A stretch of 40,950 nt of DNA from a virus (taxonomy: Duplodnaviria; Caudoviricetes): the IMG/VR virus record IMGVR_UViG_3300008255_000222, positions 1-40,950 of that record; one strand, written 5' to 3'. Within the stretch, counting starts at the first letter, position 1; each line of letters starts with the position of its first letter. The notes beneath the pieces were generated by a model, which was given only the letters and a program-made list of their open reading frames with translations, ran no database searches and was not told the DNA's origin. Shown in pieces: positions 23,019 to 40,950 of this stretch. Both the position numbers and the translations under genes were made by a program.

Positions 23019-23181
23019 TCCCCGCCTCCCGCGCTGTGATTTTGGCGATTTGCTTTTCAAGTTTTAAAGCGCGAAGCTGTAGCGGTACTGCCAGTTCATT
23101 TACTAAAGGGCTATCAAGTCCGTTTCTATCCTCGATCAACGCCGCAACCCTGCGCAGGTATGCGACTTCTCCATATAACAT
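23011..23181 (-). CDS. 56-aa hypothetical protein (not in ORF track)
   Basis: MLYGEVAYLRR...AREAGNE fills the gap and overlaps both neighbours. Confidence 0.55.
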   Translation of the reverse strand: MLYGEVAYLRRVAALIEDRNGLDSPLVNELAVPLQLRALKLEKQIAKITAREAGNE

Positions 23182-24224
23182 TCGCAAAGCCCATATTTAG
23201 ATTGACATTGCTGATCTTCGTTTTCTGAAAAATTCATAAGGTCGTACTGTACCCCCCCCCGTGTCGTCTTCGCCCATTCCGCAACCGCGTGAATACCCAG
23301 ATAGCCGTCAACATTGACATCGTAACTATCTGTTTTTGTCGTTTTATTATCCGGAAAAAATGTTGCCATGCCGAGCCGTGAACACTCCGAAACTATTTTT
23401 TCCCATTCTGCAACTCGCTCGATATGGTCTGGGTAACGCGCGGCAATAGATGATAGCTCCGATTTATTACACATAACGCATGGGAAGCATCCAACGCGCC
23501 CCATGCCCTCGAAGTAAAGCGGGTTTGGCTGAACATTATGCTTTCTGTGCATTGCAAAAACATCCTCATGCGTCCAGTCAAGTATAGGACGCCAGATCAC
23601 CGCGCCGCTGTCGCAATGTCCGAAACGATCAAGCTTTCTTCGTGCCTCCGATTCCTCCGCACGAACACCCTGCCAAGAAATGACGCGCCGCGCATACCAT
23701 CCGCGCTTTTTCACGGCAGGAAACATTATTTGTCTCTGCATCGGCAGAGACTTCAATTCTTCCGTGCAGAATCGTGCTTTTGTGGATGGAAATCGACCTT
23801 TCAGCATACACAAATCAAGAAAAGGGTTGCCTGTCGGGAACATCAATTCTATCGCTCGATTAATCCTTTCCTGCGGAACTGGCGGCGATACAACGCGGCG
23901 GCCTTTCGGGTACTTTTTATTAGGCGCAAAGTTTGTTACGCGCTCTAGCCCCCAATTATCGCGGATAAATTCACGCCTTTTTTCAAATTTATCCGAAAAA
24001 TCTGCGCGGATAATTTCAATCTTGGGGCCGCCTGTCTTTTCGTGCAGAGTCTGAACAAAGTCATAAGTTTTTTCATGTTCATGGCCTGTATCAGCAAAAA
24101 CTGGGCGGAATGTTAACCCCCATTCCAAAGCCAGCAAGTAAAGAGCTGTAGAATCCTTCCCACCAGAAAACGAGACAATATTCTCAACCCCATCTTGCCG
24201 AATGTATTTCTTAAAACCGTTCAT
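23136..24224 (-). CDS. PAPS reductase-family (PP-loop) protein
   Basis: SFSGGKDS, FADTGHE, RFCT.ELK, GVRAEES, RVGCFPC, C.S.YGLCE. Confidence 0.9.
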   Translation of the reverse strand: MNGFKKYIRQDGVENIVSFSGGKDSTALYLLALEWGLTFRPVFADTGHEHEKTYDFVQTLHEKTGGPKIEIIRADFSDKFEKRREFIRDNWGLERVTNFAPNKKYPKGRRVVSPPVPQERINRAIELMFPTGNPFLDLCMLKGRFPSTKARFCTEELKSLPMQRQIMFPAVKKRGWYARRVISWQGVRAEESEARRKLDRFGHCDSGAVIWRPILDWTHEDVFAMHRKHNVQPNPLYFEGMGRVGCFPCVMCNKSELSSIAARYPDHIERVAEWEKIVSECSRLGMATFFPDNKTTKTDSYDVNVDGYLGIHAVAEWAKTTRGGVQYDLMNFSENEDQQCQSKYGLCECYMEKSHTCAGLRR

Positions 24225-25366: not shown

Positions 25367-25421
25367 TGGCTGGGCTGGCTCTTTGAGTTGTTCACGTATC
25401 GCGTATCACGCCGCAGCCCCA
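25367..25421 (-). ncRNA. Short copy of a CCA-ending structured element
   Basis: 46/48 identical to 27171-27218; GGGCTG/CAGCCC stem then AGCCA. Confidence 0.45.
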
Positions 25422-27131: not shown

Positions 27132-27220
27132 TGGTTGGGGGCTGGCTCTACCCTTTCGGTCATAGAGTTAGGCTGGCTATTTGAGTTGTTCCCGTATCGC
27201 GTATCACGCCGCAGCCCCCG
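27132..27220 (-). ncRNA. 89-nt tRNA-like RNA without a recognisable anticodon arm
   Basis: C-GGGGGCTG...CAGCCCCC-A-A-CCA terminal stem, plus CTCTAT/GTAGAG hairpin at the T-arm position. Confidence 0.55.
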
Positions 27221-31156: not shown

Positions 31157-31353
31157 GTACGAAATCATATCTTGGACGGCATCAGATGCGCCCGGCGACG
31201 CCGAAAAGCGAGATTTTTAAACTGGCACAAAAAGCCTATGAGCGCGGCGTTATTACGGTTGATCTGCATGACCAGTCGCTGGTTATGGATGATTGGTTAA
31301 AGCAAGGCCTGATCAATTGGGCTGACAGGGTTTACGGGGGTAAGAAATCATGA
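31153..31353 (+). CDS. Hypothetical protein
   Basis: ATGA coupling on both sides. Confidence 0.65.
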   Translation: MSTKSYLGRHQMRPATPKSEIFKLAQKAYERGVITVDLHDQSLVMDDWLKQGLINWADRVYGGKKS

Positions 31354-32102
31354 TTGCGCTGGAAGACAGAACAATCGGAAACTGCCGCCTTATACTTGGC
31401 GATATGCGGGATGTTATGCCGCATTTGCCGCCTATCCAGTGTGTTGTGACAGACCCGCCCTATCCTTTAACGTCTGGCGGCAATGTCGAGCATGAAACCT
31501 CGATGAAAGGCATTTTCTCGCATGACCAGTATGACAACAAAGGCAAGATTGTTGCATGTGATATTGAATGGAATGAATTTTGCCCGCTGATCTTTAATGC
31601 AATGGACGCTGGGCATTGTTACATGTTCAGCAATGACAAGAATTTGCCGGACATGTTTGACGCAACGCGCGCGGCAAAGTTCCGCTTTCACAATATGCTG
31701 TATTGGCGCAAGAACACCCAAACGCCGAACCGCTTTTACATGAAAAATACGGAATATGTCGGCTTTTTCTTTAAAGGAAAAGCGCGGAAGATTCTTGATT
31801 GCGGTGCCGTTCAGGGAATCTACTGCCCCGCCGACAAGGTAACAAATCACCCGACAGAAAAGCCGGTTTCTTTAATGCGCCATTACATCAAAAACAGCGC
31901 CCGCCCGGATGATCTGGTCTGCGATCCATTTATGGGTGCCGGTGCATCGGCTGTTGCGGCTGTGCGTGAACAACGCCGCTTTATCGGTATCGAAATTGAA
32001 AAGGAATGGTACGACGTGACATGTGAGCGCGTCGCAGAGGCCGTAGAAGGCAAAGGCCTGACAATGGATATGTTTTCAGAGGGAGGGGCGGCGCATGGCT
32101 AA
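31350..32102 (+). CDS. Orphan beta-class N6A/N4C DNA methyltransferase
   Basis: TDPPY precedes HPTEKP and DPFMGAG. Confidence 0.9.
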   Translation: MIALEDRTIGNCRLILGDMRDVMPHLPPIQCVVTDPPYPLTSGGNVEHETSMKGIFSHDQYDNKGKIVACDIEWNEFCPLIFNAMDAGHCYMFSNDKNLPDMFDATRAAKFRFHNMLYWRKNTQTPNRFYMKNTEYVGFFFKGKARKILDCGAVQGIYCPADKVTNHPTEKPVSLMRHYIKNSARPDDLVCDPFMGAGASAVAAVREQRRFIGIEIEKEWYDVTCERVAEAVEGKGLTMDMFSEGGAAHG

Positions 32103-34964: not shown

Positions 34965-35303
34965 ATGAGTAAAACAACCGAAGCCCTTGCCTGTCACGAT
35001 GCGCTACACGCTATTAAGCATGAAGGGCAAATGGAGGCGCTGAATAAATCATCAGATCAGAGGTCGGCGTTTAAGGATAAATACGGGCAAGGATATGAAG
35101 CCGCAATCTTGGAATCTGCGCGCAAATTTGCGGAGATTTCCTCTGTGCTGGCGCATTTCGCAAAGGCGGATAAGGAAGCCGATTTTTGGTGGTCGCGCAT
35201 ATCAACTGATGATGACGCCGCGGAAAAATGGACGGCATGCGAAGAGATTAAGGACGATCTGCGTAAACGCATGACGGATATGGCGGCGGAGGTGGCGTGT
35301 TGA
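34965..35303 (+). CDS. Hypothetical protein
   Basis: GGGGAG RBS. Confidence 0.7.
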   Translation: MSKTTEALACHDALHAIKHEGQMEALNKSSDQRSAFKDKYGQGYEAAILESARKFAEISSVLAHFAKADKEADFWWSRISTDDDAAEKWTACEEIKDDLRKRMTDMAAEVAC

Positions 35304-35310
35304 GGCTGGT

Positions 35311-35811
35311 ATGAGGAGACAGGGACAGCCGCGCAAGGAGATATACGGAGGCAATGCCGCGCTGCAGGAAGCGTATCGGCAGGGGTATCGCCGCTTTTAT
35401 CTGGGGCTGGCGGCGGATTATTCGCTGTCAAACATGCGCGGCGTGGATATCGCGCCCTGCGGGCTGGCCGACAGCCGGGCAACGCGCCTTCATTGCGGCG
35501 GCACTGCGGAGGTGACAATCAATGGCTTTTCAGATGCCGTGACCTATGTCTATAGCCGCTCCGTTGTTACCCTGCGGGCATGGAGCCACGGCACCGTGAT
35601 GGCGCGCGGACATGCGCGGGTGATCAATAGCTGCTACGGCGTGGTCATGCTTTACGAAAACGCATCGGCGGAGGTGTCGGAGCATGCAACGGTTTACGTG
35701 CATAACCCCGCCTGCCGCGTCATTATGCGCGACGCGCGCCCCTGCTATGTGAAAGAGGTCTGGCGGCAGGATGGTTACGACTGGAAAAAGCCGCTGCAAT
35801 GGGTTATGTAG
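35311..35811 (+). CDS. Hypothetical beta-repeat protein
   Basis: GAGG RBS; A.V repeats. Confidence 0.65.
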   Translation: MRRQGQPRKEIYGGNAALQEAYRQGYRRFYLGLAADYSLSNMRGVDIAPCGLADSRATRLHCGGTAEVTINGFSDAVTYVYSRSVVTLRAWSHGTVMARGHARVINSCYGVVMLYENASAEVSEHATVYVHNPACRVIMRDARPCYVKEVWRQDGYDWKKPLQWVM

Positions 35812-35845
35812 AAAGGAGATTGATATGGCGAGAAAAATACAAACA

Positions 35846-36075
35846 ATGGCGGGTTTGACCCAAGAACAACGCGGCATCGCTGCTCTTCAATGTCCGACCG
35901 CACCCAGCCCATCAAGTAGCGTATTTGCGCCTCTAAAAACTGTGTCGCCTCATCAACGCCGAGTAAATCAATCGCGTCACCCTGAAAAGATTGCTCATCC
36001 CCGAGATGCTGCGCTGCGCCGAAACGGATCAAACGTCCGTCAGATGTCCGCAGTTTTGGACGCGGCGCACCAACA
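35846..36075 (-). pseudogene. Internal fragment of a second, unrelated terminase large subunit
   Basis: PKLRTSDGRLIRFGAAQH.GDEQ.FQG...DLLGVDEATQF...MGWVRS...RCRVVLGSNPP (Walker B plus coupling motif). Confidence 0.8.
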
Positions 36076-36312
36076 AAGCCGCGCGAGTTCCTGCAAGACT
36101 CTTTCGCGGGTGATTTCCAGTTTAGCGGCTGTTTTCTGCGTTAAACGCCCGATTTCCGCCTGTATTTCTGGTTTTTGGAGGTTTTCAGAACCAATCTTTC
36201 CGGCTGTTTTCGAACTATATCCGGATCGAATGGCGGCTTGTGTTGCGTTAAAGTCGACAACGTATTCAAGGCAAAATCGCTCCTGCTTTGCCGTCAGCGT
36301 GTTGTCAGACAT
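36040..36312 (-). pseudogene. Truncated pac-type (Terminase_2-like) small subunit
   Basis: LTAKQERFCLEY.VDFNATQAAIRSGYS.KTA..IGSENL.KPEI...ITRERVL.ELA. Confidence 0.85.
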
Positions 36313-36428
36313 TAAGCCCCCCGTTTGGCGGAAAAGCGCAGAGCTTATCAAATGCGGGGATGGCGAGAAGGAGAGCCGACCGCAGAAAAGAGTCGTCGTG
36401 CGCTTGTTCCATGATTGATTGAGATTTC

Positions 36429-36454
36429 AAAAAACCCGCGAGGTGATTCGCGGG
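36429..36454 (-). terminator. Terminator upstream of the relic terS
   Basis: CCCGCGA...TCGCGGG followed by TTTTTT. Confidence 0.7.
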
Positions 36455-36602
36455 GTGTATTTATCCATTATGCCAAGAATCATAACAAATGCAGGGTGAA
36501 ATGCGGAATTTATTTTTAATGCGGTGTTTACCCCGTGCAGCCTATAGACTAAAGCATTGATTTTAAACAAAACATTTTTTTCTTTTTTTGTCGCTTTTTT
36601 TG

Positions 36603-36637
36603 TTGACTTAATCCCACTGCTGGTGGTATTCTATAAG
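36603..36637 (+). promoter_or_regulatory. Sigma70 promoter with internal palindrome (cassette 1)
   Basis: TTGACT-18-TATTCT with CCAC-N5-GTGG in the spacer. Confidence 0.7.
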
Positions 36638-36684
36638 TATAGAGACCGATTGGCGGTTTCGAAAACTCAAAAAGGAGTAAAACT

Positions 36685-37026
36685 ATGACACAGACAATCA
36701 CAAAATTTGACCGCAGCGATAACACTGTCAGCATCTACGCCGATTATGGGCAGGGTCGTACGCGGCTGGCAAAAATATTCAGCCTTGAAAAATTCACGCT
36801 TACTGATCTGCGCGAGTTGATTAAATGGGCGGATATGGAAGAGCAAACGAGCTGGCCTGACGACCATTATGTAATGGACGCGCTGAACGCCTTTGCGGAG
36901 GGGAATCGCCCGCACATCTGGCGCGTATCGTCAGAATCAGGCGGTGGGGCTGCCATGAATGGCGTGAAAGAGTTTCACCCAACCTTCCGCGATGCGCGGA
37001 TTGAGGCGGAATCACAATTTTGTTAA
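36685..37026 (+). CDS. Hypothetical cassette cargo protein
   Basis: AAGGAG RBS; first gene after the promoter. Confidence 0.8.
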   Translation: MTQTITKFDRSDNTVSIYADYGQGRTRLAKIFSLEKFTLTDLRELIKWADMEEQTSWPDDHYVMDALNAFAEGNRPHIWRVSSESGGGAAMNGVKEFHPTFRDARIEAESQFC

Positions 37027-37122
37027 GCGATGGCGGAGCAACTAAAGGTTTTGTCCGTACATGATGCTGGCTGGATGTATAACTAAAAAACAACTGCGGC
37101 TCGCCGCAGAAAGCTTAAAGCT

Positions 37123-37542
37123 ATGACAACCTACAACCTCTTAAAACAATCCTGCGGCCTCTCACACCGGGAGGCCGCCGCCTATCTCGACGTGCGGGAG
37201 AGCCGCTCGAAGGATTGGTCGGCAGGGCGTGTGCTCACACCGCCCGGCGTTCTGGCCGGTCTGTTTGAACTCGTCCTACGGCAGGAGGCTGCGGCAGAGG
37301 AGGCGCTGGCAGTGATCGAGGCGGCGATAGACAAGCACGGACTGCCGCAGTCAATCCCGATCGGCGTGTCGGTCGATGACCATGAGGCGCAATCTCTGGG
37401 CTGGCCATGCGTAGCTGCGCATATGGCGGTCATACGCCGCCTGATCGAGATGCTTGAGCCGGAGATCGTGCCGCTGATCGAAATCGTCCCGCGCGGCTCG
37501 ACCCCTGAAACCGCCGCCGCGGCCGATGCGCACGGAAAATAA
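37123..37542 (+). CDS. HTH protein (Aca-like position)
   Basis: SCGLSHREAAAYLDVR....KDWSAGR...PPGVL. Confidence 0.75.
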   Translation: MTTYNLLKQSCGLSHREAAAYLDVRESRSKDWSAGRVLTPPGVLAGLFELVLRQEAAAEEALAVIEAAIDKHGLPQSIPIGVSVDDHEAQSLGWPCVAAHMAVIRRLIEMLEPEIVPLIEIVPRGSTPETAAAADAHGK

Positions 37543-37700
37543 TTGCGCCCATCCCCCGCCCTTAAAACGCATCACGCCGCGCCATAATAATTTTTTAATC
37601 ACCCCGTTATGGTCAACAATCATATTGCCGCAAATAAAATCATCATTGTCGGGGGAAATTTGAAAATTCTGGATGTGGTCGAGATTCCGCTTTATTCGGT

Positions 37701-38528
37701 TTAGACAATCACAATATCACCGCGCCTTTTGTCGTAGAGCCACCACCATTTTACAATTGCGTCCGTTGTTTGTTTTTGGTCGCGCCGGGTATCATCTGCG
37801 CAGCGTTTGATACATTCGGACTCCGACGTTTCCAGCACATAGACCGCGACGGGCTTTAACTGGTCAATCCACCATTGTCTGTTTTTTGCGCTGGGTTCGG
37901 ATACGATAAACCATGCGGAGCGCCCGTCATCCTGCATGCGCGATAAGTCACCAAGCATTTCGTTTCGCCGCCATAGCGCAGCGTTCAGCCAATGCGCAGA
38001 CCAGCCATGTGACGTCTCTCCGCTTATTTCCGCGGCAATCTCGTCAAGGTCAATCACAATGTCATTTTCTTTGCGGCGCTGGTTTACCAGATAGGATTTT
38101 CCCGCGCATGGCGGGCCGCATACGATATGCAGCGGAATCTTGCTAGGCCGTAGCCAGTCAGGGCGGCGCGCCGCGTTCTGATCTGCTTTTTCCCGCGCCT
38201 GTTTGATAGAGTCGTGCCATGCCTTGGAAACGCTTTGCAAGTTGTTCTCGTCCCAAAATAGCGCGATATCGCCCCTATGCGGCTTTATGTGGTCAACAAC
38301 GGGGCTATTCGGTGCGGGATGCTTGCCAGATAGCAAAACGCCTGTTTGCCTGCATGTGAATAAATCCCGCTCCAATATCTTCAAGCGTAGATCCCGCCAT
38401 CGTTTTTGGTGATAGAGTTTGCGGAAATCATTATCGGCTTCGCGCTTTTTCAGGCGTTCCCGCTCTTTATCCGTTCTCGATGATACAGGGACGGATAAGG
38501 ATTGCATGTCTGGTTTTAACGTGTCCAT
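37701..38528 (-). CDS. Terminase-associated-type HNH endonuclease fused to a P-loop kinase/AAA domain
   Basis: RW..LR..IL.RDLFTC, VVDHIKPHRGD..LFWDE.NLQ......HD; GPPCAGKS. Confidence 0.9.
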   Translation of the reverse strand: MDTLKPDMQSLSVPVSSRTDKERERLKKREADNDFRKLYHQKRWRDLRLKILERDLFTCRQTGVLLSGKHPAPNSPVVDHIKPHRGDIALFWDENNLQSVSKAWHDSIKQAREKADQNAARRPDWLRPSKIPLHIVCGPPCAGKSYLVNQRRKENDIVIDLDEIAAEISGETSHGWSAHWLNAALWRRNEMLGDLSRMQDDGRSAWFIVSEPSAKNRQWWIDQLKPVAVYVLETSESECIKRCADDTRRDQKQTTDAIVKWWWLYDKRRGDIVIV

Positions 38529-38534
38529 GCGCCG

Positions 38535-38705
38535 CTATACCGTCATGAAAAGAGTCGACAAGGCAAGGCTCATAATGCCGCATCCAACACCGACAAAAAC
38601 CGCCATGATGATGGAAGAGGCAAGGCCTTTTTCCTCGCCCATGCAATGAAAGAACATTGTCAGGCCTCCAAGAATGCAAGCGGCGAATGTGATGCTTAAA
38701 ATCAT
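38535..38705 (-). CDS. 56-aa two-TM protein (not in ORF track)
   Basis: AAGGAG RBS; MILSITFAACILGG...STLFMTV. Confidence 0.65.
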   Translation of the reverse strand: MILSITFAACILGGLTMFFHCMGEEKGLASSIIMAVFVGVGCGIMSLALSTLFMTV

Positions 38706-38760
38706 TTTTTTTCTCCTTTAGAGTTCTGGCTTGCGCCCTTTCCGCGCGCCTTTTGTGTTT

Positions 38761-39447
38761 TTAATTTTCGTATTCGTCGCTTAGTGTTACCAGCGGCGCA
38801 AGGTCGGCCGGCAGGCGTTCAATGGCGCGGCGTAAAACAGCGTGTTGTACGTTCATATATGGGGGCAGGCCATCATATATTTTAACGCTGATTGCCGCCC
38901 CTTTCTTGATCATTGCGCGGATTCGTTTTTCTTCCTCAATTGATAGTTTATCAATCAAGTCATAGAGCGCGCGTAATTCTTGCAGGACGCCTTGCGGGCA
39001 TGTGCGGCGATCTGTCCACCAGTCCTTTCCGGTGCCATGCCGGGCGCCTGCAAATTCCGTGCCTTCGTCGCGCGTCAATCCGCAACTGCGACAAAGCAGT
39101 TTATAGGGTGAAATAATCCTTGGTTCTTGTTCCATGTCCGACTCTCCTGATCGTCTCGGTTCGCCTGCGATCTCTTCCCATTGTTTCGGGAACCCGCGCG
39201 GCCCTGTTTCGGTTTCTTCAAACATAATCTTTATGCCCTTGCTTAGCAGCTCGCCCGGCGCGCTGTATGCCTTTTGCATCACGGCACATATAACAGCGTC
39301 CGAGTCTTCCCCTTCCAATGCCTTTGTGAAGCCGTCAAGGGAAAGTTCACAATAGCGATCAGCGCCAATTTTTTCAAAGGCATTTTGAACGGCATTAACA
39401 CGCAGTCCGAAACCGGGAAGTTTTTTATAGATTGTTTCCTGTGTCAT
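38761..39447 (-). CDS. Unknown domain fused to an HTH paralogous to 37123-37542
   Basis: YKLLCRSCGLTRDE.......GKDWWTDRRTCPQGVL; internal RBS and ATG at 39135. Confidence 0.75.
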   Translation of the reverse strand: MTQETIYKKLPGFGLRVNAVQNAFEKIGADRYCELSLDGFTKALEGEDSDAVICAVMQKAYSAPGELLSKGIKIMFEETETGPRGFPKQWEEIAGEPRRSGESDMEQEPRIISPYKLLCRSCGLTRDEGTEFAGARHGTGKDWWTDRRTCPQGVLQELRALYDLIDKLSIEEEKRIRAMIKKGAAISVKIYDGLPPYMNVQHAVLRRAIERLPADLAPLVTLSDEYEN

Positions 39448-39451
39448 GTGT

Positions 39452-39640
39452 CTATGCCCCTTTAAAAGCTGATCGAATATTCCGGTTTTTTCCCCATAGC
39501 GCGCGCGGCGTTGGGTGGCGTTCCCATGATATGCGGGAAATATCAGATATATTTTGCCATGTGCGGCGCGGCGTTCCGTCATGATAGAAAGGAAAATCGC
39601 GGCGCTCTGTTTCATATGCAATTTGTCCGGGCGTTTTCAT
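39452..39640 (-). CDS. 62-aa hypothetical cargo protein
   Basis: AAGGA RBS; TPGQIAYE...P.YHDG.PR..W......SWER.PTPR. Confidence 0.7.
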   Translation of the reverse strand: MKTPGQIAYETERRDFPFYHDGTPRRTWQNISDISRISWERHPTPRALWGKNRNIRSAFKGA

Positions 39641-39699
39641 TGTATCAAGTCCTTTTCGTATAAGGGGGGAAGCCTTGCGCGCGCTCCCCTGTATTGTTG

Positions 39700-40674
39700 T
39701 TATGCTGTGGCTTTGTACTGTGCAAGCGCCGACGCTGTTAAAACGCGGTGTTCTGTGGCGCTGATAGCGTTCCGGGTTAATTGCCGTTGCCATGCCCCGA
39801 AACGCGGGGACCACCGGAAACCGTTTGATTTTAAAACGGCGCGGACTCCTTCGTCTGGCTTGCCGTCAAAAATAAGCTGCAGGCGGTCTTCTTCGTGATT
39901 GTGTACAATCTTTAGGCCGTTTAAGGCGGTTTCCTTCTCAACCTGTGGCGACTCATCTGCAAGGCGTTGCTTTGCCTCCATATCTGCGACGCGCGCGCGC
40001 ATGCGTTTGATATTCGCCAAATTGTTTGACAATTGAAAGGATGCAAAGCCAATGCGCTGTGCATAGTCCGGCTTCATGAATACTTGATAGGCTTTAGAAC
40101 CTTTTTCCTCGCCGTATGTATCGACAAAGAGCGCGCGCAAGCCGTCAAAGTCTTTTTTTCGTGCGAGAGCATTAGCAGCTTTCATAAAGTCTTGTGCTGA
40201 TTCAGCGCCTGCAAGATCCCGTCGCATTTTGTCCAGTGCCGACTCTGCCTTTTCCGCTTTGCTGTAAACATTGGCAAGGCTTTTAAGGGCGTATCCGCGC
40301 ATTTTTTTATTGAAGTCTATCAGTTCAACGCATCTTTTATGCTCTGCCTCATTTGCTTTTTCTGCCCGCCTTACTGGAAAGTTAGAAGGGCCGGCGATCA
40401 TAGAAGAGATGCAGCGCGATTTTGCAGCGATCCATGCTAGATATTTTTTCTTGTAGGATTCGCGCAAGCGGTCAAAAACGTCCTGCATAATTTCCTGCTG
40501 TCTTCCGTCCTTGGCGTTCTCTTCAATAAATGCCGCAAGGCTTTTCATGCTTTCAATATATTCGGCGATCATAGAGTCGCCGCGTTTTTCCGGGGAAAAA
40601 CTTGTGCCATTATGCGCGCGGCGCGCGGTTTCTCTGTCAATGTCTTTTTCTATTCCTGTGGTTTTGATATTCAT
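39700..40674 (-). CDS. Polyvalent-protein/leading-region-type domain protein
   Basis: SMIAGPSNFPVRR, LSNN.ANIKR, RLQLIFDGKP...R..LKSNGFRWSP..GAWQRQ motifs, which I recall from plasmid and phage polyvalent proteins. Confidence 0.6.
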   Translation of the reverse strand: MNIKTTGIEKDIDRETARRAHNGTSFSPEKRGDSMIAEYIESMKSLAAFIEENAKDGRQQEIMQDVFDRLRESYKKKYLAWIAAKSRCISSMIAGPSNFPVRRAEKANEAEHKRCVELIDFNKKMRGYALKSLANVYSKAEKAESALDKMRRDLAGAESAQDFMKAANALARKKDFDGLRALFVDTYGEEKGSKAYQVFMKPDYAQRIGFASFQLSNNLANIKRMRARVADMEAKQRLADESPQVEKETALNGLKIVHNHEEDRLQLIFDGKPDEGVRAVLKSNGFRWSPRFGAWQRQLTRNAISATEHRVLTASALAQYKATA

Positions 40675-40728
40675 TTTATTTTCTCCGTTTTGGGTTCTGG
40701 CGATTCGCGGCCTTTCCGCTTGCCTTGC

Positions 40729-40761
40729 CCTTATAATGCCACCATAAAGGCGGCAAGTCAA
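40729..40761 (-). promoter_or_regulatory. Sigma70 promoter with internal palindrome (cassette 2)
   Basis: TTGACT-17-CATTAT with TGCCGCC-N5-GGTGGCA palindrome. Confidence 0.7.
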
Positions 40762-40908
40762 GCAAATAATGCAAATTAATGTGATTTTATTTGCAGTCAT
40801 GCGGCGCAAGCATGAGTCCTTATGATTCACCTGTCACCCTTTGCCGTATTCATAGCCGGCGCGCCGGCGCTTGCCTGCATCTTGCCGCGTATCCGCACGA
40901 CCATCTAG

Positions 40909-40950
40909 GCAGGGGGGGGGCAAATCTTCCCGGCTTTTCGATCCGCCAAC
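40909..40950 (+). other. cos-proximal right end
   Basis: G run then CAAATCT; joins to CTCATTCGGA plus A/T tract at position 1, upstream of terS. Confidence 0.6.

Follow-up and report, generated by a model that had tools for sequence, protein, structure and literature searches.

In CRISPR biology, anti-CRISPR-associated (Aca) genes are the main signposts toward anti-CRISPR (Acr) and other counter-defence proteins. The closest described system to the locus reported here is the acrIF8-aca2 operon of Pectobacterium phage ZF40 (Protein Data Bank, PDB, entries 7vjo and 7b5j), in which the gene for the two-domain helix-turn-helix (HTH) regulator Aca2 stands last, a palindrome lies between the promoter hexamers and, after the -10 box, the leader forms a stem closed on G-AUGG-C. 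According to published work, Aca2 binds DNA (PMC6765145) as well as such leader hairpins (PMC13551039), and operons of Aca1, Aca2, Aca10 and Aca12 combine a promoter DNA motif with an RNA hairpin directly past the start site (PMC13551039), a study that started from Aca1-12. Two further proteins of similar structure, SO3848 of Shewanella oneidensis (2ox6) and YdiL of Salmonella (1s4k), are described in PMC8434428 with function unassigned and without an acr gene. Here we analyzed the IMG/VR virus record IMGVR_UViG_3300008255_000222 (Duplodnaviria; Caudoviricetes), whose full 40,950 nt are called the window. Between positions 36603 and 40761 it carries two cassettes, A and B, each with a promoter, a leader, small cargo genes and a terminal HTH gene (HTH-A and HTH-B). 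We propose that these are accessory operons, each ending in a likely autorepressor with the predicted Aca2 fold, and that their cargo likely counters host defences early in infection.

Family and fold of the HTH regulators

The HTH-A gene (37123..37542, plus strand) encodes 139 amino acids (aa) with the recognition helix ESRSKDW, and the HTH-B gene (38761..39135, minus strand) encodes 124 aa from an internal start, a short form without the last helix that carries the helix HGTGKDW. The initial annotation had taken the two for paralogs. They are indeed related (30% identity over 121 aa, E 2e-12), but in a quick tree (63 rows) HTH-A pairs with P0002 (98) and HTH-B with P0123/P0124, inner support being weak, and given this identity and placement a recent duplication was not supported. 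Among 826 candidates, 187 were relatives of HTH-A, and relatives with names came mostly from Alphaproteobacteria. Neither window HTH matched a Pfam family at E 0.05, HTH-A matched no NCBIfam family, and neither protein reached the curated cut-off of PF08965 (DUF1870), the family of ZF40 Aca2, which appeared in 1 of the 120 homologs listed. A profile of 60 HTH sequences found Aca2 (7ezy) as its best PDB sequence match (E 1e-4, positions 6-90, across both domains) and matched ZF40 Aca2 with probability 75 and E 2.5e-5.

The HTH-A structure model (predicted local distance difference test, pLDDT, 96.6) follows Aca2 in the succession of its six helices and two strands, to which it adds one further helix, and it shows the N-terminal HTH, the long helix 4 and the C-terminal domain with a two-stranded parallel sheet that characterize the superfamily. 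Its best matches were SO3848 (Z 12.7, root-mean-square deviation 3.7, 135 residues aligned), ZF40 Aca2 (7vjo; Z 10.2, 2.6, 109 residues) and YdiL (Z 9.3, 2.9, 110 residues), all over nearly the whole length, while the next-ranked entries covered roughly the HTH alone; entries of these three proteins also filled the top 10 in Foldseek, and a new fold was thereby ruled out. A predicted HTH-A homodimer scored 0.84 against 0.00 for the best control (96% of contacts shared between runs, pLDDT 88), on a scale whose mark 20 of 30 solved pairs and 1 of 23 single chains attained. Its interface packs helix 1 against helix 6, as in the Aca2 interface described in PMC8434428, although this pass may reflect likeness to solved Aca2. 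By profile, model and predicted dimer, the window HTHs are thus placed as remote members of the Aca2/YdiL/SO3848 superfamily, in a divergent and mostly alphaproteobacterial branch, so that the suggested new Aca-like family holds as a new branch and not as a new kind of regulator. Unlike Aca2 (12-21% identity), the branch has the signature GxxxDDHEAQSLGWP and an extra C-terminal helix, SO3848 likewise having a C-terminal extension; and in contrast to what is described for SO3848 and YdiL, the branch gene ends phage operons with variable cargo.

The family had no match in 72,556 plasmid records and one among 50,697 cultured phages, Bradyrhizobium phage ppBeUSDA76-1, where the locus begins too close for a leader to show. 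Literature searches, which did not extend to the 2024 Nature paper on Aca2 and RNA, found no description of the clade. The signature words DDHEA and LGWP were missing from the AcaFinder supplements (8 files, including 1,422 cluster representatives) and from those of PMC9410906 (mostly accession tables), and one supplement of PMC13551039 held no signature or taxon term of the clade, exact-word absence being weak evidence in each case.

Promoters, palindromes and gene order

The window holds two copies, and no more, of the string TTGACTT..TGGTGG(T/C)ATT, which the initial annotation had read in both promoters; they lie at 36603 on the plus strand and at 40761 on the minus strand and face inward. 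Each copy belongs to a sigma-70-like promoter with 9 of 12 matches and a TG: P1 (36603..36632, plus strand, TTGACT-18-TATTCT, with the TG as an extension) and P2 (40733..40761, minus strand, TTGACT-17-CATTAT). Also as annotated, a palindrome lies between the hexamers of both, each with 6 of 7 pairs matched around a 5-bp spacer. Candidate operator A, AATCCCAC-N5-GTGGTATT (36610..36630), occupies the same position as the family operator, and candidate operator B, TGCCGCC-N5-GGTGGCA (40737..40755), resembles the operator of a related locus, L030. The shared string sits one base off relative to the two dyad centers, and the operators therefore differ. Taken singly these palindromes are modest (shuffle P ~0.02 each; 4.8% of window positions score equally well).

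Behind P1 lies the gene for cargo A (36685..37026, plus strand; 113 aa, isoelectric point, pI, 5.1), separated from HTH-A by a gap of 96 nt with a hairpin inside. P2 is followed on the minus strand by cargo B1 (39700..40674, 324 aa), a further hairpin, cargo B2 (39452..39640, 62 aa, basic) and cargo B3 (39136..39447, 104 aa, pI 4.8), and the genes within each cassette are inferred to be co-transcribed. The open reading frames (ORFs) of 113, 324 and 62 aa were thus found as annotated, but the unit of about 104 aa is not separate: B3 lacks a stop codon and reads in frame into HTH-B as one 228-aa ORF (39447-38761), within which a ribosome site, GGAGAG, precedes the Met at 39135. Of 35 matches to this ORF only itself covered both parts; four matched the first part alone, giving B3 four stand-alone homologs, and 30 mainly the second.

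Family-wide, the acr-aca-like architecture that had been read from the two cassettes is strongly supported, with variable small cargo, a palindrome at the promoter and the HTH gene last. The family shows Aca features: its gene closes short operons of mobile elements in which the small genes upstream vary, and a conserved inverted repeat overlaps the operon promoter.

Leader hairpin

A hairpin in the leader behind each promoter had been missed by the initial annotation. We collected 66 loci and, leaving out the window's own record and 12 duplicates, kept 53; a leader model (R1) was built from 22 leaders, the window excluded. R1 found 36 sites in 35 of the 53 loci, 13 of these loci lying outside the seed, and every site was on the HTH strand and upstream of the HTH gene. 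Two-sided changes occurred at 7 of 8 pairs, and 89% of cells were paired in an alignment that had been fitted to the structure; shuffles reached 76%, and slid controls no more than 62%. A search with the motif alone brought up the new loci L070, L073 and L076, and L075 (a near-duplicate of L011), each with an HTH gene downstream, the other two pattern matches being loci already in the set. R1 had no match in 24 loci of weak HTH matches, in L087 or in ZF40. Rfam gave only tRNAs in 11 loci, and nothing at E 1 in window positions 35500-40950.

This covarying hairpin directly past the start site is a feature of Aca2-type operons, shared by the window copies in loop and position only. The G-AUGG-C loop of ZF40 is present in many relatives (L016, L037, L041, L060, L061, L065 and L066). 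In the window, leader hairpin A (36642..36660, plus strand) has 7 bp, the loop AUUGG and z -3.4, and is one of two of its type when both strands of the window are scanned; leader hairpin B (40707..40719, minus strand) has a 4-bp core and the loop AAAGG. The leader of L030, which falls in the same weakly supported subclade, aligns with those of both P1 and P2, which therefore look like a subtype.

As a separate observation, L005:3456-5437, L018, L023 and L140:13340-14000 have cassettes in tandem, in which another, smaller type of HTH lies upstream, and in L005 the same leader hairpin stands ahead of the smaller-HTH operon with a different palindrome.

Recognition helices and operators

Instead of the TTCG-N6-CGAA of Aca2, the branch operator is TACAC-N5-GTGTA or a variant of it. 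Across 42 cases, TACAC-N5-GTGTA (at most one mismatch) accompanied 25 of the 27 helices of the form [DN]T[VI][KRT][SA]W and none of the 15 variant helices, which have other palindromes at the same place: GTGCGA-N5-TCGCAC in the single clade of L056, L061 and L066, TGTAAC-N5-GTTACA in L009, CCCTAC-N5-GTAGGG in L065, and TGCCCCA-N5-TGGGGCA in L030, whose KDW helix is like that of HTH-B. No clear palindrome was found in L014 and L019. The four KD helices (HTH-A, HTH-B, L030 and L065) accompany C-rich outer half-sites. There were perhaps five or six independent switches of helix and operator, and this sequence-level link is the best indirect sign that the HTH reads the palindrome. Since HTH-A and HTH-B have variant helices and different operators, each cassette is likely to be regulated separately, and the two likely act independently.

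Cargo

Behind 34 leaders we cataloged 43 cargo ORFs, which fell into 30 BLASTP clusters with a median length of 103 aa, 26 of the ORFs having a pI below 6; the upstream genes are thus not invariant, and one of them is another small HTH. Scans of Pfam, PHROGs and NCBIfam found no known toxin domain in the 43. The commonest family, AAP38 (28 sequences, model pLDDT 90.8), had no Foldseek match at E 0.001, and its best structural match reached Z 5.3, with AcrIIA4 at Z 3.6. Weak PDB matches of A6, A7 and A8 were not credited.

The four window cargo proteins are singletons in this clustering and had no credible PDB match. Cargo A is an orphan, without a homolog among proteins of 62-198 aa; its best value in an atlas search was 0.79, with a template-modeling score below 0.5, and a match to BurrH, in which no single stretch passed, was taken as a repeat artefact. 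Cargo B2 matched phrog_35349 (function unassigned, E 1e-6) and cargo B1 matched phrog_19458 (E 4e-50). By language-model features B1 scored 0.95 (222 of 256 features) and is DUF3560/LPD25-like, with a likeness of 0.93-0.96 to viral DUF3560-named and LPD25-bearing clusters, but had no Pfam match over the cut-off. The operons of PMC13551039 likewise have many unannotated cargo genes, LPD-type cargo being noted for aca4, and that study links LPD-type domains to counter-defence as a prediction made for LPD29.

CRISPR context of carrier genomes

Scanning for the motif gave 12 genomes, of which 6 had cas1. A sample of 401 Alphaproteobacteria added 4 full-length carriers, and 3 of these had it as well (G044, G101 and G187; a further carrier, G004, had been counted already; G044 is unpublished data). 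Overall, 9 of 15 carriers had cas1, compared with 105 of 401 in the background (P 0.006), and 9 of 11 after four cas1-negative bins labeled otherwise were dropped (P 2e-4). Seven carriers had Cas9 genes, which were full length in five (G044 again from unpublished data), split in G008 and short in G006.

When 281 spacers were compared with the cassette-bearing prophages, G009 gave one match (29 of 30, the mismatch at the first base), and three spacers of G101, which may be a mixed bin, matched its own cassette-bearing prophage at 30, 29 and 28 of 30, the flanks sharing NNGNC. G009 (array on L114, prophage on L131) and G101 (array on L122, prophage on L140-L141) thus have type II-C arrays, a full-length Cas9 and targeted prophages of their own. 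PMC7708048 puts self-targeting at 19% of CRISPR genomes and about 45% of prophage carriers, half of it against prophages, and because this background is high the two cases among six are a hint only. The ORFs at L140:14067-14315 (G101) and L065:4669-5001 (G009) are candidate anti-Cas9 cargo; a search with 82 of the 122 small ORFs predicted in these two prophages gave no named Acr. We also noted an acyl-carrier-protein-like gene (L131:17327-17620) that lies within the G009 prophage region or at its edge.

In G187, a distant family member (E 7.5e-11) and a 41-aa hydrophobic ORF lie between the repeats of a type I-E-like array (L112:13575-14235; G187:C1, ~761,600-762,200) that adjoins an apparently complete cas3-to-cas2 operon. 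This protein is possibly a repressor captured by the host. Taken together, the CRISPR associations of the family are no more than suggestive.

Surroundings of the cassettes

The window is the whole virus record, linear, without terminal repeats and an estimated 96% complete. By Pfam and PHROGs scans the phage is tailed and temperate, with genes for an integrase, a CI-like repressor and a lysozyme, terS (at 378) and terL, and genes for portal, Clp protease, capsid and tail. The cassettes are convergent as annotated, and in addition they are separated by an HNH endonuclease-ATPase fusion gene (37701..38528, minus strand), whose C-terminal ATPase domain is of the AAA_33 type, and a 56-aa hydrophobic ORF without a family match (38535..38705, minus strand). 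Cassette A is also divergent from a vestigial second packaging module (35775..36351, minus strand), consisting of an N-terminal part of terS followed by an out-of-frame terL fragment of phrog_979, a family other than that of the working terL, in the orientation opposite to the working terminase module. Positions 35775-38705 would then derive, in inverted orientation, from the HNH-cassette-terS-terL region of another phage, with which cassette A was likely brought in. Positions 35219-39158 lie on a single contig of a second study, so that the arrangement is not an assembly artefact; together with a contig from another run that covers 35268-40950 this rules out a chimera, and most of the layout is borne out by independent data. 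Both HTH genes are covered by contigs of the second study, and the matches listed show no change in them.

Loose ends of runs X1-X3 at 37154-37197 and 37477-37542 reveal further family members in the same samples, one of which, a mosaic exchange, joins an HTH-B-like middle to an HTH-A C-terminus with downstream sequence like that after HTH-B. Elsewhere the window holds, in its early minus-strand region, a direct repeat of 48 bp whose copies (25373-25420 and 27171-27218) are 96% identical, and also a PAPS-reductase-domain gene (23136-24224) and a DNA methyltransferase gene (31350-32102) that are possible DNA-modification counter-defence genes.

Discussion

The branch has a high likelihood of working as Aca2 does. 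On phage entry, host sigma-70 polymerase would fire the strong promoter, so that cargo is made first and the HTH protein accumulates afterwards; it would dimerize, helix 1 against helix 6, and shut off transcription by binding the palindrome that lies between -35 and -10. Autorepression of this kind is highly probable. As with Aca2, the HTH protein would likely also bind the leader hairpin and damp translation, a step toward which the evidence leans slightly. Given their different helices and operators, HTH-A and HTH-B would each control mainly their own cassette. For the cargo we infer an anti-defence role: the same regulator and leader stand ahead of about 30 unrelated small proteins, and the family therefore likely marks new counter-immunity genes. 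We somewhat favor the view that one or more of the window cargo proteins act against a host defence; that one is specifically an anti-CRISPR is doubtful.

Several observations weigh against this proposal. Unlike the acrIF8-aca2 operon, the branch has no known acr upstream: Acr or named anti-defence families were found for none of the 43 relatives and none of the four window cargo proteins in Pfam, PHROGs and NCBIfam, which include part of the known Acrs, and the family is not yet Aca by definition, because no acr partner is known. An upstream acr accompanies only 35 of 1223 Aca2-like proteins in PMC9410906, and 17 of the 43 cargo ORFs are not acidic. The two window leaders escape R1 at E up to 5, as does that of ZF40, so that hairpin kinship rests on loop and position, and hairpin B is weak (z -0.8). 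The helix-operator cases are not independent, the SIDKM variants forming one clade, and because of this descent the Fisher P of 1e-9 overstates the link. The cas1 background was not matched for prophage carriage, and in the random sample alone the count is 3 of 4 (P 0.056), with G044 unpublished and G187 not a prophage cassette. Self-targeting was seen in 2 of 6 genomes with retrieved prophage regions, which does not exceed the published background, and none of the 281 spacers matches the window. Finally, HTH-B is fused to cargo, and no clear ribosome site precedes HTH-A, which lies 96 nt downstream of its cargo, so that either cassette may be decaying.

The last point leads to the explanation that the family is functional but both window copies are remnants, A having hitch-hiked with the deleted terS/terL and B having lost its stop codon. 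The broken terS/terL beside P1, the unique B3-HTH-B fusion and the failure of R1 on the window leaders would fit, yet every ORF is open, the promoters are intact along with the palindromes and hairpins, the HTH genes are unchanged among the second study's listed matches and L030 shows the leader subtype to be natural; we regard decay of both copies as very improbable. Hardly more probable are modules of the type II toxin-antitoxin kind, with toxic cargo followed by an HTH antitoxin-repressor. Their gene order is identical, the cargo stop overlaps the HTH start in many loci and Xre antitoxins are weak fold neighbors (Z ~7), but a single repressor family behind 30 unrelated clusters, the lack of any toxin family in the 43 cargo ORFs and a conserved RNA leader as in aca2 operons argue otherwise.

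A stronger rival, though still unlikely, holds that these are self-regulated moron cassettes with an Aca2-fold autorepressor, with cargo that helps the lysogen or, as a defence, keeps other phages out. It agrees with the rarity of acr neighbors among Aca2-like proteins (PMC9410906) and the description of YdiL and SO3848 without a known acr (PMC8434428), with the absence of Acr matches for the cargo, with cassettes that adjoin terS or come after lysis genes, and with the family member inside a host CRISPR array. Autorepression would silence such cargo in the lysogen, which fits a burst at entry; the cargo is small and often acidic, and cas1 enrichment and self-targeting lean toward counter-defence. 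We therefore continue to favor two autorepressed operons with early counter-defence cargo.

A bolder reading seems unlikely as a whole: an undescribed alphaproteobacterial Aca2 branch with a readable helix-to-operator code, stacked independent cassettes, new type II-C Cas9 inhibitors and a repressor captured in a host CRISPR array. If it were true, a few recognition-helix residues and the palindrome would have been swapped while the RNA hairpin loop was kept, across 30-plus cargo families, and at least one host would use a captured in-array repressor to silence incoming cassettes. The branch goes undetected by the standard Aca2 model. Together with its leader it leads to some 30 families of small proteins without annotation in alphaproteobacterial phages, a shortlist for screens that includes two prophages persisting beside a targeting Cas9. 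With its natural helix and operator variants, how a dual DNA- and RNA-binding repressor shifts its DNA specificity while keeping its RNA target becomes testable.

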